A DNA stretch of 22,597 nt, from assembly GCA_037481835.1 (NCBI GenBank), contig JBBFKW010000024.1, positions 4,502 to 27,098 of the forward strand, in the 5' to 3' direction. This document shows, one piece after another, positions 856 to 16,600 of this stretch. The stretch comes from Desulfosoma sp. Lineage in GTDB: Bacteria > Desulfobacterota > Syntrophobacteria > Syntrophobacterales > DSM-9756. Made by a program: the position numbers and the translations under genes. How positions within the stretch are numbered: the first letter of the stretch is position 1; the number at the start of each line of letters is the position of its first letter. The notes under the pieces were generated by a model that was not told the DNA's origin, did not search any database, and saw only the letters and a program-made list of their open reading frames with translations.

Positions 856-2241
856 TCAGATCCCGAGAAGCATTTTGGCCGTTGAAAAGTAGATCATGAG
901 CCCGGTGATGTCCACGATGGTGGTCAAGGCCGGGCTTGCCACAACGGCGGGATCCAGTTTCATTTTGGCCGCCGCCAGGGGCAGCAGGGCGCCGATGAGT
1001 GTGGCCGTGACGACCTGCAATCCCAAGGCTACGGCAATGGCCGCCCCGATCTTGGCCAGGGAATAACCCGCCGGGATTTCGCTTCCCCGGGAAAGAAACA
1101 TGACTTTGGCCCACGAAAGAATCCCCAGGACCACGGCCAGGAGAATGGCCACGTTGAATTCCTTCCAAAGAACCCGGAACGTGTCTCGAGGGGACACTTC
1201 CCTGAGGGCCAAAGCCCGCACGACCACCGTGGCGGCCTGGCTTCCCGTGTTGCCGCCCGTGTCGGCCACCATGGGCATGTACAGCGCCAAAATGAGAAGC
1301 TTCGTGAGGGCGTCTTCGAAGCTGTGGATGATGAGCCCTGATACCAGCCCCAGGGCCGCCAGGCCGACGATCCAGTAAGCGCGGTTCCTGAAATGCACCC
1401 AGGCCGGGGTTTTCAGGTATACGCCCGCTTCATGGCTGCCGGCGATGGCCATGAGTTTTTCCATGTCCTCCGTGTGTTCCTGAGTGATGATGTCGATGGC
1501 ATCGTCGTGGGTGATGATCCCCACCAGGGCGTCCCCGCCGTTGACCACAGGGAGCGCGATGAGGTCGTATTTTTGGATGATCCGGGCCGCGTCTTCCTGG
1601 TCGTCGTCCACGCGGGCGAAAATCACGTCGCGATGCATAATGTCCCGGATCTTGGCGTCCCTTCGGGCCAAGATAAGATCCCTCAAGGACACGAAGCCCA
1701 ACAGACGGCGCTGCGCATCCACCACGTAGGCGTAGTAGATGGTTTCCTTGTCCGGGGCCACTTCCCGGAGGCGCTCGATGGCTTGAGCGGCCGTGAGGTC
1801 CGGCGACAGGGTGGCGTAATCGGAGGTCATGACGGCCCCCGCCGTGCCTTCCTTGTAGGCGGCCAGTCGGCGGATGTCTTCCCGTTCCGCCTGGGCCAGG
1901 GCGGGAAGCACCGATTCCTGGAGCTCCTCGGGCATGCGTTTAAACAGGTCCACCCGATCGTCGGGGGGCATGTCGGAGAGAAGCCGTGCCATCTCTTCGC
2001 GGCGCAACGTCCGGATGACTTCCACCTGGAGGTCTTCGTCCAAGTGGCTGAAGATTTCGGAGCGCTGGGGGGAGGGCGTGTGCCGAAGAACGGCCCACAC
2101 CTCGGCGGGCTCCAAGGCCGACAAACCTTCGGCGATGACGGCCGGGTGGGCCGTCGCACAGTACTCTGCGATGGCCTGGGAGTCCCCTGAGGCGATGAGG
2201 TGCTGCAGGTCGGATGCAATGAGCGGATTTTTGTTCGTCAT
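856..2241 (-). CDS. mgtE: Magnesium transporter MgtE
   Basis: 461 aa. MgtE N-domain (MPPDDRVDL), CBS pair (TAGAVMT, ETIYYAYVVD, KYDLIALPVV, GIITHDD), TM motifs GGNTGSQ and DPAVVASPALTTIVD. GGAGGT SD. Confidence 0.97.
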   Translation of the reverse strand: MTNKNPLIASDLQHLIASGDSQAIAEYCATAHPAVIAEGLSALEPAEVWAVLRHTPSPQRSEIFSHLDEDLQVEVIRTLRREEMARLLSDMPPDDRVDLFKRMPEELQESVLPALAQAEREDIRRLAAYKEGTAGAVMTSDYATLSPDLTAAQAIERLREVAPDKETIYYAYVVDAQRRLLGFVSLRDLILARRDAKIRDIMHRDVIFARVDDDQEDAARIIQKYDLIALPVVNGGDALVGIITHDDAIDIITQEHTEDMEKLMAIAGSHEAGVYLKTPAWVHFRNRAYWIVGLAALGLVSGLIIHSFEDALTKLLILALYMPMVADTGGNTGSQAATVVVRALALREVSPRDTFRVLWKEFNVAILLAVVLGILSWAKVMFLSRGSEIPAGYSLAKIGAAIAVALGLQVVTATLIGALLPLAAAKMKLDPAVVASPALTTIVDITGLMIYFSTAKMLLGI

Positions 2242-2296
2242 GGTCCACCTCCCGCTGAGCTGCCGCGGAGCCCGCCGCGTGCCCCGGAGGTGAACC
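2242..2296 (-). promoter_or_regulatory. Hairpin sequestering the mgtE Shine-Dalgarno
   Basis: In the mRNA, GGUUCACCUCC (2296-2286) pairs with GGAGGUGGACC (2252-2242): 11 bp with one G-U, ending right before the AUG. Inner CGCGG/CCGCG stem. Confidence 0.7.
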
Positions 2297-2302
2297 GGCG
2301 GG

Positions 2303-2434
2303 CTAGGCTCGGGAGGAAGCCCGGAGGATCACGGACTGAGGGGAACGGGGCAGGCGTCGCGACGGATGTTTTTCTCCGAAAGGCCCATGCAGGCCCCGCT
2401 TCGGGCAACTTGGGCTGCCATCGGCGTCGGTCAT
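2303..2434 (-). CDS. Putative mgtE leader peptide (43 aa, 6 Pro)
   Basis: GGAGG SD 8 nt before ATG 2434. MTDADGSPSCPKRGLHGPFGEKHPSRRLPRSPQSVILRASSRA*. The stop lies 6 nt before the anti-SD arm. Confidence 0.4.
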   Translation of the reverse strand: MTDADGSPSCPKRGLHGPFGEKHPSRRLPRSPQSVILRASSRA

Positions 2435-2581
2435 GAAAAAAGCCTCCGTGTTCTGGAAAACAAAGGGGCTCCCGCTGAGCACCCAAACGCCGCTTCTTCT
2501 GCCACAGCAAGCGTCTCAATTCAATACTTTTTCTCGAGGCCGAATTTTTTTCTTGACCGGCTGAAATTTTTCGGTTCCTAT

Positions 2582-2596
2582 GTTAACACTATGAAC
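2582..2596. promoter_or_regulatory. Putative MarR operator 1, overlapping the marR start codon
   Basis: GTTAACACTATGAAC, an imperfect palindrome (GTTnAnAnTnTnAAC). Its exact reverse complement occurs at 3087-3101. Confidence 0.65.
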
Positions 2597-3067
2597 GAAA
2601 AGGCGAACCGATCCGACGACTACTTTGCGTATCAGGTGCGGCGTTTTCAGAGCCTCATGGAGGAGGTGGTCCAGTGCTGCGAAACGCGGGCGGCCTATCT
2701 TTCCAAGAAATTCGGCCTTCCCGGCGCGGAACTGCGCGCTCTGATGCTCTTTCGCGAGGACAAGTATCTGACCGTCAAGGGGATCGCCCTGAAGATGGAT
2801 GTGGCCAAGAGCCGCGTGACCAAGATCGTCGCCGGCCTGCTGGAAAAGGGGCTGGTGAGCCGCATCGACGACCCGGCCGACGGGCGCATCAAGCTCATCA
2901 GCCTGACCCCCGCCGGTCGGGCCGCGTGCGATGAAATCTCCGCCTTTATCGCGACCCTTCACGAAATGATCCTCCGGGAACTGGACCCGGAAGAGCGCAA
3001 ACAGGTTCTGACGGCTCTGGAACGGTTGCGCACGAGCATGGAAGCGGTGAAAGAAAGGATGTTTTAG
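2591..3067 (+). CDS. MarR-family transcriptional regulator
   Basis: 158 aa from ATG 2591. wHTH signature LTVKGIALKMDVAKSRVTKIVAGLLEKGLVSRIDDPADGRIKLISLTPAG. No SD and TATGTT 6 nt upstream, so possibly leaderless. Confidence 0.92.
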   Translation: MNEKANRSDDYFAYQVRRFQSLMEEVVQCCETRAAYLSKKFGLPGAELRALMLFREDKYLTVKGIALKMDVAKSRVTKIVAGLLEKGLVSRIDDPADGRIKLISLTPAGRAACDEISAFIATLHEMILRELDPEERKQVLTALERLRTSMEAVKERMF

Positions 3068-3086
3068 AGTTTTTTGGCTCCTTATG

Positions 3087-3101
3087 GTTCATAGTGTTAA
3101 C
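3087..3101. promoter_or_regulatory. Putative MarR operator 2, just upstream of the dsrE2-like SD
   Basis: GTTCATAGTGTTAAC, the reverse complement of 2582-2596, followed by gAAAGGAGG. Confidence 0.65.
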
Positions 3102-3115
3102 GAAAGGAGGCGTTT

Positions 3116-3673
3116 ATGACGCACGATTTGGCGACGGTGGAAAAACAGGTGGCGGAGATGCGGGCCCAGCTGGAATCACTCCAGAAGAGGGTTCCGTCCA
3201 ACAAGCTTTCCATGGTGGTTTTCAGCGGCGATCTGGACCGCGCCTTGGCGGCCTTCATCATTGCCACGGGCGCCGTGGCCATGGGGATGGAGGTGGTCAT
3301 GTTTTTCACCTTCTGGGCCACGCCGATTCTGCGCGACCCGGCCAAGAAGGTGGAAGACAAGGATCTCATGGGCAAGATGTTCGGCACCATGCTGCCCAAG
3401 GGAGCCTGTTCCGTGAAGCTTTCCAAGATGAACATGGGCGGCTTGGGCACGGCCATGATGAAGAACCTCATGAAGCAGAAAAACGTGGCCAGCTTGGAGC
3501 AAATGATCGCCTTGGCGGGGGAACTGGGCGTGCAGATTTACGTGTGCGAGCTTTCCATGGAGCTCATGGGGTTCAAGCGCGAGGAGATGATTCAATACCC
3601 GTCCATGGATTTTTGCGGGGTGGCCAAATTCCTGGAAGAAGCCATGGACAGCCGCGTGCAGCTTTTCATCTAG
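3116..3673 (+). CDS. DsrE2/DrsE_2-type (DsrE/F/H-like) sulfur-transfer protein
   Basis: 185 aa. VFSGDLDRALAAFIIATGAVAMG, MFFTFW, LSKMNMGGLG, conserved Cys in VCELSMELMG, C-terminal LFI. Strong SD AAAGGAGG. Confidence 0.9.
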   Translation: MTHDLATVEKQVAEMRAQLESLQKRVPSNKLSMVVFSGDLDRALAAFIIATGAVAMGMEVVMFFTFWATPILRDPAKKVEDKDLMGKMFGTMLPKGACSVKLSKMNMGGLGTAMMKNLMKQKNVASLEQMIALAGELGVQIYVCELSMELMGFKREEMIQYPSMDFCGVAKFLEEAMDSRVQLFI

Positions 3674-3744
3674 ATCCCCGGCCCCACGGGGGGCGAGGGG
3701 GAAATCGGGGACGTGTTCCCGCAACAAGAAAGGGAGGATGGATC

Positions 3745-3987
3745 ATGAGCGAGGCCGTTCGAGCAGACAAGGTGATGGATTTGAAGGGGCTTCCGTGTCC
3801 CATGCCGGTGGTGAAGGTGAGCAAGGGGATCAAGGACGTTGCGGTGGGGCAGATCCTGGAAGCGCAGACCACCGATCCGGGCTCTCTCACCGATTTCCCC
3901 GCCTGGGCCCGGACCAGCGGCAATGAAATCGTGGACACCATCCAAGAAAACGGGATCATCAGGATTTTCATCAGGCGAAAAGTTTGA
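3745..3987 (+). CDS. tusA: TusA/SirA-family sulfur carrier
   Basis: 80 aa from ATG 3745 (SD GGGAGG). DLKGLPCPMP (CPxP motif), TTDPGS, DFPAWAR. Confidence 0.92.
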   Translation: MSEAVRADKVMDLKGLPCPMPVVKVSKGIKDVAVGQILEAQTTDPGSLTDFPAWARTSGNEIVDTIQENGIIRIFIRRKV

Positions 3988-4101
3988 GTCACGGCACGGC
4001 CTGAAAGGCCCGGCGCGCGCTCCTTTCCCCTTCGGGGGCAGGGGCCCCAACCGGGCCGAAAGGCCGGGGTGCGCGCGCCCCAAGAGCCGGAAGGGGGATC
4101 C

Positions 4102-4812
4102 ATGCAGACCGCCTACTATCTGATTCTGGTTCCCATGGTGTATGCGGCTTTCGCCGTTTTTGTCTTGGGCACGGCGGTGCGTCTCATCCAGACGGCCCGC
4201 CGGCCCCCCCACCCGACGACATTGCAGATCTTCCCCAAAAAAGAACCCGCGTGGCTGTATGCCGTCGCGGACACGTTTCTCATGCCGTCCGTTCTTCGCC
4301 ACACCCCCGTCCTGTGGTTCTTCCTGGCCGTTTTTCATCTCGCGGTGCTCCTGCTCATCATCGGGCATCTGGAGCTTTTCGGGGATTGGGCGGTTTTCCA
4401 AGTGGTGCCCCATGAAGTTTTCCTGGGCAGAGGGTTCGTGGGCCTGGCGGCGGCGGTCTCCTTGCTCTATCTCCTTGTGCGCCGTTTCCACGCCCCGGTT
4501 CGGGACCTTTCCGTACCCGAAGACTATTATCTCTTGATCCTTCTTTTCCTCACGGTCATTTTCGGAAGCCAGATGGATTGGGCCCGTCGTTGGTACGACT
4601 ACGACGTCATGGGTGTGGGCGCCTACCGGGCCTACCTCTGGAGTCTCGTCACCTTCAAGCCTTTCGTGCCCGACGAAATCCTCTATTCGGGCCATGCCTT
4701 CATGCTGGTGCTCCACGTCTTTTTCGCCAACCTGTTTCTCATGGTCTTTCCCTTCACGAAAATGATGCACACGTTCTTGGCCCTGCCCATGAACCTCTTG
4801 AAGCGAGGGTAG
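4102..4812 (+). CDS. NarI/DsrM-like di-heme b membrane subunit
   Basis: 236 aa from ATG 4102. About 5 hydrophobic helices and four His in the NarI/DsrM pattern: FHLAVLLLIIGH and LHVFFANLFLMVFPFTKMMH. Also LVRR...VR..S.PEDY. Confidence 0.88.
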   Translation: MQTAYYLILVPMVYAAFAVFVLGTAVRLIQTARRPPHPTTLQIFPKKEPAWLYAVADTFLMPSVLRHTPVLWFFLAVFHLAVLLLIIGHLELFGDWAVFQVVPHEVFLGRGFVGLAAAVSLLYLLVRRFHAPVRDLSVPEDYYLLILLFLTVIFGSQMDWARRWYDYDVMGVGAYRAYLWSLVTFKPFVPDEILYSGHAFMLVLHVFFANLFLMVFPFTKMMHTFLALPMNLLKRG

Positions 4813-4814
4813 TC

Positions 4815-6077
4815 ATGGACCTGCAAACAAGAGAGGATCTCCTCAAGCTTTTCCAGACCAAGCTCAACCGGGCCATGGTGTACTACCTGGAAACGTGCAC
4901 CCGGTGCGGGGTGTGCACCACGGCCTGCCACGTGTACCAATCCATGCCGCAGGCCCGATACATCGCCGCCTACCGCGCGGAAATCGTTCGGCGCATCTAC
5001 AAGAAATATTTCAAGGGCCAGGGGAAGGTGTGGCCGGCTTACGGGGAAGCCAAGGAACTGACCGAAGCGGCCTTGCAAGAGCTCTACGATGCGGCCTACT
5101 CCTGCACGGGATGCCGGCGCTGTATGGTCTATTGCCCCTTCGGGATCGACACCCAAATGATCATGTCCATCGCCAAGCTGCTCCTGGTGGGGGCCCATGC
5201 GGAACCGGAAATCCTGACCCTTCTTGCGGATACGTCCATCGAAAAGGGGCGTTCCCTGGAATTTTTCAAGGAAGGGTTCCTGCAAGGCGTCAAGAACCTG
5301 GAGCAGAAGGTTCTCGAAAAATGGAAGATGGAGGCGGAAGGCAAGACCGTCATTCCCGTGGATGTGGAAGGAGCCGACCTCCTTTATGTCGCCTTGGCCG
5401 GCGCCCATTCCATCATTCCAGCCGCGGCGGTCTTCAACGCCGCCGGAGAAAACTGGACTTTGAGCTTCTTCGAAGCGGTCAATTTCGGTGCCTTCGTGGG
5501 AGATCCGACCCGAACCAAGCTCATCCTCGATCGGATTGTAAACGAAGCCTTGAGGCTCAAGGTCAAGGAAGTGTGCATCTGCGAATGCGGCACGGCCTAT
5601 CGCGTCATGAAGCAGCTTTCCGGCACCCAGCCCTTTAAGGTGTCCTCGGTGACCGAAGTCCACGCGCGGTATCTGCGCGAGGGCCGTATTCGGGTGAGTA
5701 AGGAAGCTTTCCGAGGGCAGGCGGTCACCTACCACGATCCTTGCCAAATCGCGAGAAACGGCGGTATTTTGGAAGAGCCCCGCTTCATCCTTCAGCATCT
5801 CACCGACGACTACCGGGAAATGGCTCCCGATCCCCGTTACAACTACTGCTGCGGCGGCGGGGGCGGCTTGGTGGCCCTGGGCGAGGATACCCTGGATTTT
5901 CGCATGAAATCCGCAAGGGTCAAAGCCGAACAGGTCCAAAGAACGAAAGCGACCCTTTTGGCGACCGCCTGCGAAAACTGCCATACCCAGCTGAGCGACC
6001 TGAATCGGCATTACGGCTTGGGCGTGAACGTCCAGTTTCTCACTTCCATGGTTGCCGACGCTTTGGTTGTGTCCTGA
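4815..6077 (+). CDS. DsrK/HdrD-like Fe-S, CCG-domain heterodisulfide-reductase-type catalytic subunit
   Basis: 420 aa from ATG 4815, 2 nt after the previous stop. Ferredoxin motifs CTRCGVCTTAC and CTGCRRCMVYCP; CCG-domain motifs ECG, YHDPC, CCGGGGG, ACENC. Confidence 0.9.
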   Translation: MDLQTREDLLKLFQTKLNRAMVYYLETCTRCGVCTTACHVYQSMPQARYIAAYRAEIVRRIYKKYFKGQGKVWPAYGEAKELTEAALQELYDAAYSCTGCRRCMVYCPFGIDTQMIMSIAKLLLVGAHAEPEILTLLADTSIEKGRSLEFFKEGFLQGVKNLEQKVLEKWKMEAEGKTVIPVDVEGADLLYVALAGAHSIIPAAAVFNAAGENWTLSFFEAVNFGAFVGDPTRTKLILDRIVNEALRLKVKEVCICECGTAYRVMKQLSGTQPFKVSSVTEVHARYLREGRIRVSKEAFRGQAVTYHDPCQIARNGGILEEPRFILQHLTDDYREMAPDPRYNYCCGGGGGLVALGEDTLDFRMKSARVKAEQVQRTKATLLATACENCHTQLSDLNRHYGLGVNVQFLTSMVADALVVS

Positions 6078-6373
6078 GGCGGAGTCCTCACGGTTTTCCT
6101 TCGGGGGTCGACCGGCGTTTGGAAGCAGGGACCTTCGGTGCGCAAAAGAGGCGTGCCGGAGGTCCGCCGGCGTCCGGTCTTGTGCAAAGGGGCACGAAGT
6201 GAACATGTGCTGGAGCGACGCAAAGGGGGTCGGGCGTTCCGCCACGGCGCCGACCCCCTTGGGGGCGCCGACGTCGCCAGGGAAAGGAGGTGCATGGGAC
6301 CAAGGCACGGAATGAGGTGAGGGGGGAGTGTTTCGGCCAGCGTATCAGAAAGCGCACATCAAAAGGAGCAACG

Positions 6374-7645
6374 ATGAAAAGAGTCTTCATTTCGTTCGTC
6401 ATTGTTCTGGGGTTTTTGGGAACGGCCGGCTCGGTTTCGGCCACCAACGGGGACAACCTGATCGCCGTCGGTCCGGTGGCGCGTGCCATGGGGGGCGTGG
6501 GCGTCGCCTCCCCGCAGGATGCCATCAGCGCCGTTTTCGTGAACCCGGCGGCCATGTGTTTCGGACCGTATTGTCCTTCTTCGGAGATGAATTTCGGCGG
6601 CACCCTTTTCATGCCCAAGGTGGACACTCGGATCAGTTTTCCCGCTTCGGGCACGGTCATTTCGGCGGACAGCGAAGACAAGGTGTATCCCATCCCGGCC
6701 ATCGGCCTTTCGGTGCCCATCACGGACCGTCCGCCTTTTTGGCGGTTCGGCCTTTCCGCCTATGGGGTTTCCGGTCTGGGCGTGGATTACAAGGGCACGG
6801 CGGTGGATCAGGCATCGTTTTACAATTTCGGACCCATGGGGTCTTTCCCCTTGGTTGCCGGGGCCTACACTGAACTGGCCATCATGAAATTCGCTCCGGC
6901 CGTCGCCTTCCAGCCTTTTGAAAAGGTGTCCTTCGGTTTGGCCCTCCACGTGGACTACGCCACCTTGGACCTGCGCCAGGGATCCTCGTCCGGCTACGGC
7001 GTGGGCGTCCAACTGGGCATGATCTACAAAGCGACGGACAACGTCTCTTTCGGTCTCAGTTACACCTCACCCCAGAACGTCAATCACGATGATGTGGCCG
7101 ATTTCGACGGAGACGGCAGCCTGGATCGACTCAAATTGGAATCGCCGCACCAGGTCGCCATCGGAGCGGCTTACCGTTTCAACAACAAACTGTTGCTGGA
7201 AGCGGACGTGAAATGGTTGAACTGGTCCGACGCCAACGGTTATGAGGAATTCGACTGGGACGACCAATGGGTGTTGGGCATTGGAGCCCAATACAAGCCC
7301 TTGCCTAAGCTGACCCTGCGCGCCGGATACTGTTACGGGAAGAACCCTCTCAATACCCACGACGGTTTCAACGGGCAGATGCCGGTGTCCGTCCAGGGAA
7401 AAACCATGCCCGCCTATTACTACGAAACTTTCCGAATCGTGGGATTTCCCGCCATCGTGGAGCATCATCTCACCTTCGGATTCGGCTACGATTTCACGCC
7501 GCGCTTTTCGGTGCATGCGGGGTATGTCCACGCGTTCGAAAAGAGCGTGGACGAATCGGGAACGGACATCGCCGGGCAGCCGGTTTCTCTGAAATCCACC
7601 TTGAGCGAAAACAGTTTGGATTTCGGCTTTACGTGGCGCTTCTAA
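6374..7645 (+). CDS. FadL/TodX-family outer-membrane beta-barrel for hydrophobic substrates
   Basis: 423 aa from ATG 6374 (SD AAGGAG). Signal peptide ending VSA|TNG, ARAMGG, NPA motif, amphipathic strands, LTLRAGY, C-terminal Phe (FTWRF). Confidence 0.9.
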   Translation: MKRVFISFVIVLGFLGTAGSVSATNGDNLIAVGPVARAMGGVGVASPQDAISAVFVNPAAMCFGPYCPSSEMNFGGTLFMPKVDTRISFPASGTVISADSEDKVYPIPAIGLSVPITDRPPFWRFGLSAYGVSGLGVDYKGTAVDQASFYNFGPMGSFPLVAGAYTELAIMKFAPAVAFQPFEKVSFGLALHVDYATLDLRQGSSSGYGVGVQLGMIYKATDNVSFGLSYTSPQNVNHDDVADFDGDGSLDRLKLESPHQVAIGAAYRFNNKLLLEADVKWLNWSDANGYEEFDWDDQWVLGIGAQYKPLPKLTLRAGYCYGKNPLNTHDGFNGQMPVSVQGKTMPAYYYETFRIVGFPAIVEHHLTFGFGYDFTPRFSVHAGYVHAFEKSVDESGTDIAGQPVSLKSTLSENSLDFGFTWRF

Positions 7646-7658
7646 AGGCCGTGCCGGG

Positions 7659-7708
7659 GCGGCCTGCCGGGGGTTTTTCCCCTTGAGGGAAAAATTCCCG
7701 GCGGCCGC
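7659..7708 (+). terminator. Long hairpin after the OM channel gene (probable end of the sulfur cluster transcript)
   Basis: GCGGCC-t-GCCGGGGGTTTTTCCC-cttga-GGGAAAAATTCCCGGC-GGCCGC, about 13 nt after the stop; weak U-tract. Confidence 0.55.
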
Positions 7709-7745
7709 TTCGGGCCGTGTCAAGCCTTTGCCGAAGACGGCTGGG

Positions 7746-7774
7746 TTGCCGTCGGCCTGCCGTGGAGGTATATG
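7746..7774 (+). promoter_or_regulatory. Putative sigma70 promoter of the ThyA-like gene
   Basis: TTGCCG-17 nt-TATATG (TATGCT lies 2 nt further), about 55 nt upstream of the ATG. Confidence 0.4.
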
Positions 7775-7827
7775 CTTAGGTGCGCTGCGGTGCGCGGACG
7801 GCGATGGTGGATGCAAAGGGGAGGGCC

Positions 7828-8607
7828 ATGCTCAAGGCGGTATTTCTGAAGGCGCGGGACATTCCGGATTTGTGGTACCAGCTGGTGCGCAAGGCCGTGG
7901 AAGAAGGCCGGGAATACAAGGTGGACAAGGGAAGCACTCCCACCAAGCGATGGGAGCTGGACTTCGTTTCGGCCCAGATCACCCATCCGGGCACCCGCCC
8001 TTTGGAGCCGGACATTCCGCCCGGGGTGGGTATTCCCAACCCCGTGGAGCCGGGTTATGCGGAAAAGTATCTCCCCTATTACATGACCGATGCGGCCCAG
8101 CCGGGAGAACACTACACCTACGGGCAGGACTTGGCCTGGCAGATCGAGTGGGTGATTGACTATTACCGCACCCACGGTCCCGGAACCAAGCACTGCTATA
8201 TGACGGTCGGGCGCCCCGAAAGCCTCCTTTTCTATGACACGTCGGTGGACTACGAGGAGGTGATCCGCGTGGCGGATCGGGCGACGGGCAGGGTTGTGCG
8301 CACGCGGAGTATCTCCAACGCTTTCAACAAGAACGAACCGGGAACCACCCAATGCCTGCGCGGCGTGGACACCGCCATCAAGTACGGCAAGCTCCACTTC
8401 AGCGTCCATTTCCGCAGTTGGAATCTGTGGAACGGACTTCCCGCCAACCTGGCCTGCCTCCAGCTGGTCAAAGAGTATATGGCCCAGCAGATCGGCGTGG
8501 AAGACGGGGAGATGTTCATCACCTGCCTCAAGCTGGGCCTGGCGGAAGCTTACTTCGACCTGGCCCGACTGCGACTGTACCTTAAGAGCCGGGACGAGAA
8601 ATCCTGA
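7828..8607 (+). CDS. Thymidylate-synthase-fold protein (archaeal/deltaproteobacterial ThyA type) with non-canonical active-site residues
   Basis: 259 aa from ATG 7828 (SD GGGAGG). YTYG, QIEWVI, QCLR, GKLHFSVHFRSW, GLPANL, EYMA..IGVE.G. RSWD is replaced by RSWN and HxY by GxA. Confidence 0.88.
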   Translation: MLKAVFLKARDIPDLWYQLVRKAVEEGREYKVDKGSTPTKRWELDFVSAQITHPGTRPLEPDIPPGVGIPNPVEPGYAEKYLPYYMTDAAQPGEHYTYGQDLAWQIEWVIDYYRTHGPGTKHCYMTVGRPESLLFYDTSVDYEEVIRVADRATGRVVRTRSISNAFNKNEPGTTQCLRGVDTAIKYGKLHFSVHFRSWNLWNGLPANLACLQLVKEYMAQQIGVEDGEMFITCLKLGLAEAYFDLARLRLYLKSRDEKS

Positions 8608-15547: not shown

Positions 15548-16600
15548 ATGATTCAAGAAAAGAGGCAGGTTCACCGACCCCAGTCGCTGGTCTTGGCCGT
15601 GATCACCTCCGCGGCCTTATGCCTTTTAAGTTTTTACAATTACCTCCTCTTCCACACACTCGTGGAAATTTTCAGCGTCGTAGTCGCCGGGGGTATCTTC
15701 ATCGTGGCATGGAACACCCGGTCCTACATGTCCCACGATTATTTGTTTTTCGTGGGTATCGCCTATCTTTTTGTCGGGTTCACCGATCTTATCCATACGC
15801 TGGCCTACAAAGGCATGGGGGTTTTCCCATGGGCAACGGCTGACGAACCCACGCAGCTCTGGATCCTCGCCCGGTCCATGGAAGCTCTGTCCCTGGCGGC
15901 AGCCCCGTCTTTCGAACGAAGGAGGGTTCGAGCAGATTTGGTGTTCTCCCTCTTTGCGGGGGCGACGGCCTTGGGCATGGCGGCCGTCTTTTGGTGGAAA
16001 ATTTTTCCGACATGCTTCGTCGAGGGCGCCGGCCTGACGGCGTTCAAAATCGCCAGCGAGGTCGTGATCATCGGCTTGGTCGCTGTGGCCATGGTGCGGT
16101 TCAAAGGCATCAGGCATCTTTTTCCGGTTCGGGTCTACCATCTCATCTTCTGGGCTCTCCTGTGCACCATTGGGGCGGAACTGGCGTTCACCCTTTACAG
16201 GGATGTTTTCGGGCTACCCAACATGCTGGGCCATCTCTTCAAACTCCTCTCGTTCGCGATTCTTTATGAAGCTTTGCTCCAGACGGGGTTCCGGGATCCG
16301 TTCGCCCTGCTCTTTCGTGAACTCAAGGAAAGCGAAACATCCCTTCGAGAAGAAAAGGCAAAGCTGGAAGAAGCCTTACGCGAAATCAAGGTGCTGAAAG
16401 GCCTCTTGCCCATCTGTTCCTTTTGTAAAAGAATTCGGGACGATCGTGGGTATTGGCAAAGCCTTGAAAACTACTTGCGCACCCACACGCAAGCTCAGCT
16501 GTCCCACGGTATCTGTCCGGAATGTCTCAAAGAAAAATACCCGGAATACGCGGAGCAGGTCCTCGGCGCAGAAAAGGACGAAAAGAACGACAAGCCTTGA
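15548..16600 (+). CDS. MASE3 membrane sensor protein with coiled coil and C-terminal four-Cys domain
   Basis: 350 aa. NYLLFHTLVEIFS, DLIHTLAYKGMGVF, TQLWILAR, GLTAFKIASE, GHLFKLLS; C-terminus LLPICSFCKRIRDDRGYW...SHGICPEC. Confidence 0.87.
   Translation: MIQEKRQVHRPQSLVLAVITSAALCLLSFYNYLLFHTLVEIFSVVVAGGIFIVAWNTRSYMSHDYLFFVGIAYLFVGFTDLIHTLAYKGMGVFPWATADEPTQLWILARSMEALSLAAAPSFERRRVRADLVFSLFAGATALGMAAVFWWKIFPTCFVEGAGLTAFKIASEVVIIGLVAVAMVRFKGIRHLFPVRVYHLIFWALLCTIGAELAFTLYRDVFGLPNMLGHLFKLLSFAILYEALLQTGFRDPFALLFRELKESETSLREEKAKLEEALREIKVLKGLLPICSFCKRIRDDRGYWQSLENYLRTHTQAQLSHGICPECLKEKYPEYAEQVLGAEKDEKNDKP

Follow-up and report, generated by a model that had tools for sequence, protein, structure and literature searches.

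We examined a window of 22,597 nucleotides (nt) of Desulfosoma sp. DNA (assembly GCA_037481835.1, contig JBBFKW010000024.1, positions 4,502 to 27,098 of the forward strand; the window is this whole stretch, and its first letter is position 1). Within it, a cluster at 2591-7645 encodes a MarR-family repressor, a DsrE-like protein, a TusA-family sulfur carrier, a membrane cytochrome b (M), an iron-sulfur protein (K), and an outer-membrane barrel of the FadL/TodX family. The first five genes are referred to here as the cassette. The list of open reading frames (ORFs), together with Pfam and NCBIfam profiles, placed all six genes on the + strand, and the gene types and shared direction proposed in an initial annotation, made from the sequence alone, were thereby confirmed. 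The gene coordinates given there also stood, apart from two starts: the ATG of M lies at 4102, in a frame that is open from 4069 and ends with the stop at 4812, and the ATG of the barrel gene lies at 6374 (Table 1). The K gene starts 2 nt past the stop codon of M. The arrangement is far from a chance one, because it was seen again in dozens of other genomes.

Table 1. Features of the six-gene cluster, in window coordinates (aa, amino acids).
Feature	Coordinates	Strand	Description
marR	2591..3067	+	MarR-family repressor, 158 aa; PF12802 45.6 bits, PF01047 38.3 bits
dsrE-like	3116..3673	+	DsrE2B/3PNX-type carrier, 185 aa; PF13686 DrsE_2 169.9 bits
tusA	3745..3987	+	TusA-family sulfur carrier, 80 aa; PF01206 70.7 bits
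M	4102..4812	+	NarI/DsrM-type cytochrome b; PF02665 54 bits
K	4815..6077	+	DsrK-paralogous Fe-S protein, 420 aa; Fer4_8 48.2 bits, CCG 41.9 bits
K-barrel spacer	6078..6373	+	296 nt, GC-rich
barrel	6374..7645	+	TodX/FadL-family outer-membrane barrel, 423 aa; PF03349 89.2 bits
operator O1	2582..2596	-	overlaps marR start codon; one arm of exact 15-nt inverted pair GTTCATAGTGTTAAC
operator O2	3087..3101	+	15 nt 5' of dsrE-like start codon, just ahead of ribosome-binding site
closing hairpin	~7654..7713		GC-rich, ~27 bp, directly 3' of barrel gene

A scan of the genome collection seeded with K gave at least 565 relatives, and the best 80 loci were analyzed. The order MarR-DsrE-TusA-M-K was retained in 57 of the 60 loci having at least 2700 nt upstream of K; of the three exceptions, L026 had no match to MarR, while L048 and L089 had no match to MarR or DsrE. 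K was 72-97% identical across the related loci, whose hosts are labelled Desulfacinum, Desulfosarcina, Desulforhabdus, Desulfatiglandales, Syntrophobacteraceae, Olavius symbionts, and many metagenome-assembled genomes. All six genes were found in a cultured organism, Desulfacinum infernum DSM 9756 (locus L012). We also surveyed 301 genomes sampled evenly across the phylum, using E <= 1e-100 for K and E <= 1e-40 for homologues of the barrel. K was detected in 16 of these genomes, and the cassette is therefore an accessory unit rather than part of a core gene set; in the same survey K was not found in the one other species of the genus to which the window belongs.

The window contains no dsrAB, dsrC, or dsrJOP, so that M and K (together, MK) have no genetic link there to dsrJOP or dsrC, as the initial annotation had stated for the immediate neighborhood. 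These functions are encoded elsewhere in the genome (3.63 Mb, 99% complete). A canonical DsrK of the DsrMKJOP type lies on contig C4 (760 bits), and contig C1 carries dsrA (577 bits) with a weaker dsrB-like match adjoining, as well as a DsrC-family gene (124 bits). Among curated families K scored best with DsrK (NF045796), at 258.1 bits against a cut-off of 400, and with 213 and 197 bits it fell far under the respective cut-offs of 735 and 750 for TmcB and HmcF. The corresponding scores of M were 45 bits for DsrM, whose cut-off is 300, and 43 bits for TmcC.

The hallmarks described for DsrK are two [4Fe-4S] motifs, a single CCG motif, and a catalytic Cys within GECGH, which reads T/GECGH in HmcF and TmcB (PMC10861901). 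K resembles DsrK in having two CX2CX2CX3C motifs (C28/31/34/38 and C97/100/103/107) and a single complete CXnCCGXnCX2C motif (C310, C345-C346, and C386/C389). At the position of GECGH it reads C-I-C-E-C-G-T, a form invariant in the family, in which E-C-G is kept, His is changed to Thr, and two further Cys are present. All 16 Cys residues of K were invariant in 83 of 83 sequences. M belongs to the NarI family by its profile match, and His80, 90, 105, 199, 206, and 224 were invariant in 74 of 74 sequences. The candidate haem ligands are His80/His90 and His206/His224, and their spacings of 10 and 18 are presumably those of E. coli NarI; M is presumed from its sequence to carry two haems.

A search of 1.84 billion representative proteins with K returned 144 at E <= 1e-30. 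For phylogeny, 57 near-full-length entries of 150 listed rows were retained and 93 fragments or partial matches dropped; the 57 were labelled by NCBIfam and combined with five proteins of the window's genome, and a quick IQ-TREE analysis was run on the resulting 62 rows. The window K formed its own clade with P0121, P0122, and P0125, having a support of 99 in the Shimodaira-Hasegawa-like approximate likelihood ratio test (SH-aLRT). Every row with at least 400 bits to DsrK, along with the genome's own DsrK, was located in a separate clade of 27 rows (SH-aLRT 99). K also fell outside the clade of HmcF, TmcB, and the genome's Hmc/Tmc-like pair, which lies on contig C3. The initial annotation had held that its reading would fail if MK proved to be canonical DsrMK and the only copy in the genome. 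Canonical DsrMK was ruled out by the scores below cut-off, the separate clade, and the true DsrK elsewhere, and MK appears by sequence to be DsrMK-like yet distinct and not a member of the DsrK family. Two distant relatives of K, P0125 (661 aa) and P0133 (670 aa), have some 240 extra N-terminal residues that may be fused cytochrome b domains.

The DsrE-like protein has a 28-residue helical extension at its N-terminus and an invariant Cys144, which was kept in 68 of 68 sequences. It had initially been labelled DsrE2, a designation that rested on the match to a Pfam name. The protein scored 76 bits with the NCBI DsrE2 model NF047629, whose cut-off is 210, and we therefore read DsrE2 as DsrE2B-like. 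Among solved structures it is nearest the soluble DsrE2B type, represented by 3PNX (124.8 bits) and 2QS7 (63 bits), and Cys144 aligns with the conserved Cys of these two and of 3MC3. TusA has the Cys-Pro-X-Pro motif of its family, for which the cut-off of 28.6 bits is exceeded, with Cys18 located within G-L-P-C-P-M-P. Cys18 was present in 71 of 73 sequences, the other two having gaps at this position, and C18, P19, M20, and P21 were invariant in a set of 30 sequences. The equivalog models for E. coli TusA and YedF each gave 41 bits, below their cut-offs of 78 and 79. These equal scores raised a selenium-related role, which was set aside as no selenium gene lies nearby.

The initial annotation had also described paired operator-like sites around marR, and these are real. 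The sequence GTTCATAGTGTTAAC occurs exactly twice in the window, once on each strand (O1 and O2), and none of 100 shuffles gave two matches. No further copy was found in the window even when three mismatches were allowed. Across relatives, the operator consensus is the palindrome GTTCAT-N3-ATGAAC. Of 61 related loci, 51 had the hexamer GTTCAT/ATGAAC around the start of marR, with full palindromes among these sites, and 34 had it in the marR-dsrE spacer, where the sites read GTTCAT-N3-AT(T/A)AAC. A scan of the whole genome proved too unspecific, with 71 sites in 3.6 Mb at up to two mismatches to the consensus, and yielded no extra member of the regulon; of its seven matches with one mismatch only C22:20439 was inspected, and the surroundings of this site resemble coding sequence.

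The winged-helix MarR domain and the palindrome over its own start place the regulator in the MarR family. Its vicinal Cys29-Cys30 pair was invariant in 64 of 64 orthologues, which on average were 49% identical to the window protein, and was present in 12 of 12 metagenome copies. From the placement of the operators, MarR very probably represses both itself and the dsrE operon, and the invariant vicinal pair points to thiol-based sensing. With such a pair, insertion of sulfur atoms as a bridge would be favored over formation of a plain disulfide. To our knowledge, there is no studied example of a vicinal Cys pair in such a sensing role. Members of the MarR family have been reported to sense sulfane sulfur (PMC11211675).

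The AlphaFold (AF2) model of the barrel protein, obtained with an alignment of 37 sequences, had a predicted local distance difference test score (pLDDT) of 88.3 and a predicted TM score (pTM) of 0.84, and consists of a helical N-terminal segment followed by a barrel. A signal peptide and an N-terminal hatch are predicted. Foldseek placed TodX (3bs0), FadL, TbuX, and CymD at the top ranks, with best TM scores of 0.64-0.69; the FadL structure entries among the matches include the mutants N33A, P34A, and delta-NPA. The profile match, for which the cut-off is 29.7 bits, the fold, and an NPA motif at mature residues 34-36 (N58 invariant, P59 and A60 nearly invariant) assign the protein to the FadL/TodX family. 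It scored 18.2 bits with the FadL fatty-acid transporter equivalog NF007988, whose cut-off is 585. The family profile gave 129-137 bits with CymD, TodX, and TbuX and about 50 bits with E. coli FadL, thus indicating a channel of the small-aromatic-hydrocarbon type.

The mature barrel has only two Cys residues, located in N-P-A-A-M-C-F-G-P-Y-C-P (precursor residues 62 and 67), where the hatch meets the first strand. This Cys-x4-Cys pair was present in 31 of 37 genome-derived homologues and in 76 of 79 metagenome homologues, 74 by strict pattern and two (L140, L141) by eye. No Cys was found at the aligned positions of three solved relatives, CymD, TodX, and TbuX. A pair of thiols in a hydrophobic channel wired to sulfur-carrier genes would fit thiol-assisted uptake of S8 or polysulfanes; the pair could alternatively form a structural disulfide, or the channel could serve another substrate. 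For Chlorobaculum, it was independently suggested that a FadL-family protein transports hydrophobic sulfur chains (bioRxiv 10.1101/172254).

The initial annotation had further made synteny of the outer-membrane gene in relatives a test of its proposal, and such synteny was observed from both ends of the cluster. Among the 66 K-seeded loci having at least 1800 nt downstream, the barrel gene followed K within 1200 nt in 32, and the intervening spacer did not exceed 150 nt in 23 of 31 loci, with a terminator-like site in three of the 31. A metagenome scan with the barrel alignment gave at least 517 relatives; the best 80 loci were kept, and after removal of 29 with less than 700 nt upstream, 51 were usable. 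Upstream of the barrel, tblastn detected K in 25, a DsrE-type gene without K in five, MarR alone in two, and no match in 19. Pfam analysis of 31 ORFs from 17 of these 19 revealed DrsE_2 directly upstream of the barrel in L133 and L144, and thioredoxin in L112 and L134. In total, a cassette-type gene lay directly upstream of the barrel in 34 of the 51 loci.

These loci include a nested series, comprising MarR-barrel (L153, L156), MarR-DsrE-barrel (L175, L092), MarR-DsrE-TusA-barrel (L177), and the full six genes. In L153 and L156 an operator, GTTAAT-N3-(A/G)TGAAC, is found about 125 nt ahead of the barrel gene, which thus takes the position that dsrE has elsewhere. Among the findings that would place the barrel in the same regulon, this operator carries the most weight. 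This link of the barrel to the cassette is a new element of the present analysis.

Within the 301 genomes of the phylum survey, a barrel homologue was detected in 15. K and the barrel were adjacent on one contig in six genomes from three families (G000, G178, G070, G258, G288, and G169, the last with a split barrel gene); in G199 both were at contig ends, and in G138 they were on different contigs. Four genomes had a barrel homologue and no K. One of these, G260, has the MarR-DsrE-barrel form of L092, and another, G104 (L094), has a barrel-DrsE_2 pair. In G244 (L095, 7488-9446) the barrel gene is interrupted, and next come a CsoR-family repressor (PF02583, 78 bits), which we take to resemble the persulfide sensor CstR and which stands in the place of MarR, and then a distant DsrE-like gene. 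In the fourth, G210, the barrel homologue lies beside a GltD/SudA-like gene.

Several loci show marks of rearrangement or decay. Genes for Mu-type, IS200-type, and DDE transposases were found beside the cassette or the barrel (L013 10139-11638, L089 9395-10348, L143 145-1305). The K gene of G138 (C13:31246-32493) has an in-frame TAG, and the barrel gene of G169 (C53:194056-195313) is split in two frames, each from decay or an assembly error. In G208, a genome of the same family (Desulfacinum-like genus g2) without the cassette, only the 3' 40% of the barrel gene is left (L098 8457-8985), and this remnant looks like a deletion scar.

The K-barrel spacer of the window gave a fold z of -0.94, not different from its shuffles, and the two closest contigs preserve it only in part. 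A scan for sigma-70 promoters and terminators found sites no more often than in shuffled sequence, and nothing promoter-like in this spacer. A stretch at approximately 6185-6215, which includes the imperfect palindrome GTGC-N6-GCAC, is mostly preserved in the two metagenome contigs that are closest, with one G-to-A difference, and D. infernum has GGCACGTGCC near the corresponding position. By its form, this palindrome may be the site of another regulator.

The cluster ends with the long hairpin noted initially, with a folding energy of -62.8 kcal/mol and a z of -6.0; none of 200 shuffles was equally stable. It is likely, from its position and stability, a transcript end or stabilizer. An Rfam scan of 2200-7900 gave nothing near gathering score, its three weak matches being chance. 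The flanking genes are unrelated to the cluster: an MgtE-type transporter gene on the opposite strand lies 5', and a thymidylate-synthase-like gene, a Tim44-like gene, and carB lie 3'. Compared with G238 (L181), a genome of the same genus, homology begins only at window position 7827, so that synteny breaks just beyond the closing hairpin, and the block to the left (MgtE-like gene, cassette, and barrel) has no counterpart at that site in G238. The thymidylate-synthase-like gene (7780-8607, +) directly follows the barrel gene and scored 52.7 bits with TIGR03283, below the cut-off. It is 90-92% conserved in two Desulfacinum-like genomes at another location, and a 27%-identical homologue occurs in G104 (L094 7463-8182), where some 560 nt separate it from the barrel-DrsE_2 pair and it lies two genes away from the barrel itself. 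A gene for a MASE3-domain sensor (15548-16600, +) lies 8 kb downstream of the cluster.

What was observed comprises the gene content and its conservation, the operator and the residues that are invariant, the fold of the barrel and its genetic coupling to MarR and DsrE genes, and the distinctness of K from DsrK; each chemical step, the barrel's substrate, and the way in which electrons flow are inferred. We propose, at about even chances, that the cluster is a self-regulated, thiol-sensed module for zero-valent sulfur that exchanges electrons between carrier-bound sulfane sulfur and the quinone pool, and in which entry through the barrel would be facultative. MarR would repress its own gene and dsrE-tusA-M-K at the two palindromic operators until modification of Cys29-Cys30 by sulfane sulfur led to its release and to derepression. 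The DsrE2B-like protein, at Cys144, and TusA, at Cys18, would carry sulfur as protein persulfides. MK would then pass electrons between the pool of menaquinone and the sulfur bound to the carriers, the putative site of reaction being a single non-cubane cluster and the adjacent C-x-C-E-C-G cysteines; most likely it would reduce the persulfide to sulfide, as a means of disposal or of respiration. The TodX-like barrel, with its Cys-x4-Cys behind the hatch, would pass small hydrophobic sulfur species, either S8 or organic polysulfanes, across the outer membrane. The patchy spread and tight repression of the cassette fit an accessory role in detoxification or a niche better than one in core energy metabolism.

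A more complete version of this proposal is possible, although we regard it as doubtful. It would make the cluster an entire S8/polysulfane route from the cell surface to the quinone pool, in which the thiols of the Cys-pair barrel would open or bind sulfur upon entry, MK would act as a quinone:TusA/DsrE-persulfide oxidoreductase, and the vicinal pair of MarR would be bridged only by inserted sulfur, allowing respiration or detoxification without DsrAB or DsrC.

Against the module as proposed stand its energetics, the lack of an importer, and the findings that favor three other explanations. Reduction of elemental sulfur (S0) or a persulfide driven by menaquinol is uphill at standard potentials. 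The same energetic doubt has been voiced for DsrMK (PMC3949148). No inner-membrane importer is encoded in the six-gene cluster. The cassette might instead feed the Dsr pathway in the direction of sulfur oxidation or disproportionation, with MK reducing quinone and building a carrier or DsrC trisulfide that DsrAB, Apr, and Sat would oxidize. Such a route would parallel the TusA-DsrEFH-DsrC relay of sulfur oxidizers and cable bacteria, and it agrees with the presence of DsrAB, DsrC, and a DsrMKJOP-type DsrK in the window's genome and of dsrA in nine of the ten cassette- or barrel-bearing genomes tested within the phylum. The independence from DsrC put forward in the initial annotation finds no support in this frequency of dsrA, and a route through DsrC may also exist. 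Transfer from TusA through DsrEFH type II to DsrC has been shown in vitro for Desulfobacterota (PMC13293266), and a basal DsrMK-only clade is described from Deltaproteobacteria that also possess DsrMKJOP (PMC10504309). In addition, ATP sulfurylase is encoded two genes downstream of the cassette in four loci. We nonetheless consider a feeder of this kind unlikely, as no linked dsrC, dsrAB, or dsrEFH turned up in the 80 loci, in a screen that used the six window proteins rather than dsr queries, and the occurrence of the cassette in so few genomes of a Dsr-rich phylum indicates that it is not a standard part of the pathway. A general system for thiol/disulfide or electrophile stress, in which MarR would sense oxidants or quinone-like electrophiles, MK would re-reduce disulfides of the carriers, and the barrel would handle an unrelated hydrophobic compound such as an aromatic hydrocarbon, is in our view very unlikely. 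The proteins of the DsrE and TusA families are known, in the literature consulted, only as carriers of sulfur or thiosulfonate; the recurrent partners of the barrel are DsrE, TusA, and MarR rather than genes of hydrocarbon degradation; and the neighbors include the CsoR-like repressor and a rhodanese-metallo-beta-lactamase fusion. Such a stress system would nevertheless accord with the finding that the barrel's closest matches are channels for toluene and cymene (TodX, TbuX, and CymD), with the thioredoxin genes preceding the barrel in two loci, and with the fact that Cys-based MarR sensors answer peroxides and electrophiles besides sulfane sulfur (OhrR, PMC9495516). It would also accord with the DsrE2B prototype of Metallosphaera, which was unreactive toward each of six sulfur compounds and showed no binding to TusA in vitro (PMC4175335).

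The barrel, for its part, could be a mere frequent neighbor, that is, an ordinary hydrophobic channel that was ancestrally linked to the cassette, is being lost, and has no role in it. No barrel was found after K in 34 of the 66 loci. Examination of 39 ORFs from these 34, picked as the longest, revealed convergent TPR genes in 10, a rhodanese-metallo-beta-lactamase fusion with ATP sulfurylase in four, MASE3 kinases in two, transposases in two, and others. The fusion, followed by ATP sulfurylase, was observed after the cassette in L069, L070, L076, and L079 (Desulfobacterales), and we take it to resemble the persulfide enzyme CstB; in L042 and L043 the cassette is immediately followed by genes for MASE3 histidine kinases. 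On a FastTree phylogeny of K from the 66 loci, the presence of the barrel required at least 13 state changes, compared to 21.8 +/- 2.1 with shuffled barrel states, where none of 500 shuffles was as low as 13. The barrel locus lacked a cassette-type gene directly upstream in 17 of the 51 metagenome loci. An operator half-site was found in only one of 32 K-barrel spacers, about the chance rate, and the MarR operator is absent from the long spacer of the window, which contains three stems, among them a weak terminator-like hairpin at 6075-6090; the 446-nt spacer of D. infernum likewise has a terminator-like site. The barrel may be separately transcribed in the lineage of the window. A barrel with no part in the cassette is nonetheless quite improbable given that searches seeded with the barrel alone recover cassette genes, that nested forms without MK exist (L092, L175, L177, L153, L156), that an operator stands directly 5' of the barrel in two of these, and that the Cys pair is conserved in the clade and not in CymD, TodX, or TbuX. 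The pairwise identities of K and barrel were also correlated, with r = 0.54 over 406 pairs, a figure inflated by relatedness alone. We retain the self-regulated sulfane-sulfur module, with the barrel as its facultative entry route, as the preferred reading of the cluster.

The cluster bears on two questions in sulfur metabolism, namely how S0, being insoluble and hydrophobic, passes through the outer membrane and how strict anaerobes remove or use sulfane sulfur. According to PMC10045233, no membrane protein for S0 transport has been confirmed so far. For both questions, the locus offers candidates that can be mutated: a barrel with a Cys pair, a distinct paralogue of DsrK whose gene is linked to those of TusA and a DsrE2B-like protein, and a regulator for which the operator is defined. 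The cultured carrier D. infernum DSM 9756 makes these ideas directly testable. With the proposed role, a function would also be assigned to a DsrMK-like pair that might otherwise be tallied as extra DsrMK in genome surveys. No description of the cassette or of its link to the barrel was found in the literature searched, which did not reach subscription reviews and supplements.

The nearest known relative of MK is the DsrMK of DsrMKJOP, a menaquinol:DsrC-trisulfide oxidoreductase that likewise combines a NarI-type cytochrome b with a cytoplasmic subunit having two [4Fe-4S] motifs, a single CCG motif, and an ECG Cys (PMC10861901). The window pair differs in scoring below the DsrK and DsrM cut-offs, in its separate clade, in having CICECGT in place of GECGH, and in being linked to TusA, a DsrE2B-like protein, and MarR instead of dsrJOP or dsrC. 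HmcEF, TmcCB, and the HdrDE of methanogens are also two-subunit complexes of a membrane cytochrome b and a CCG iron-sulfur protein. K is far below the HmcF and TmcB cut-offs and in another clade, and the cluster encodes no cytochrome c partner, whereas HdrD differs from K in having two CCG motifs rather than one (PMC10861901).

The dsrE3A-dsrE2B-tusA genes found beside sHdr in sulfur oxidizers (PMC4175335, PMC11094781) similarly place a DsrE2-type protein and TusA next to an enzyme resembling heterodisulfide reductase. In the window, however, this enzyme is the membrane-bound MK and not the soluble sHdrABC with its lipoate-binding proteins; DsrE3 and rhodanese are absent; the host is a sulfate reducer; and a dedicated MarR and an outer-membrane barrel are present. 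The YTD cluster (yedE-tusA-dsrEFH type II), which is discussed as a marker of sulfur disproportionation, also brings together TusA and a DsrE-type carrier in Desulfobacterota (PMC12998232, PMC13293266). It was ruled out as the identity of the locus, since 2591-7645 contains neither a YedE/YeeE transporter gene nor the two extra small genes. Moreover, the DsrE protein of the window is of the PF13686 type, and the YTD cluster is without an MK pair, MarR, or barrel.

The barrel shares its predicted fold, N-terminal hatch, and NPA motif with TodX, TbuX, CymD, and FadL. The Cys-x4-Cys pair directly after NPA is conserved in the clade of the window protein and lacking in the solved relatives CymD, TodX, and TbuX. 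It is a clade whose gene partners encode sulfur carriers rather than enzymes of hydrocarbon or fatty-acid catabolism. As in the CstR/cst and SqrR regulons, and with OhrR, MexR, and MarR, a Cys-bearing repressor lies beside sulfur-carrier genes with an operator over its own start. The known persulfide dioxygenase is oxygen-dependent and so cannot be used by strict anaerobes. In contrast to the effectors of the CstR/cst and SqrR regulons, those of the window would be reductive, quinone-linked, and independent of oxygen, and the candidate sensing pair is vicinal. Compared with these systems, the cluster presents an enzyme of the DsrMK/HdrDE type with new partners, and the clade of barrels with a Cys pair is its most original part.

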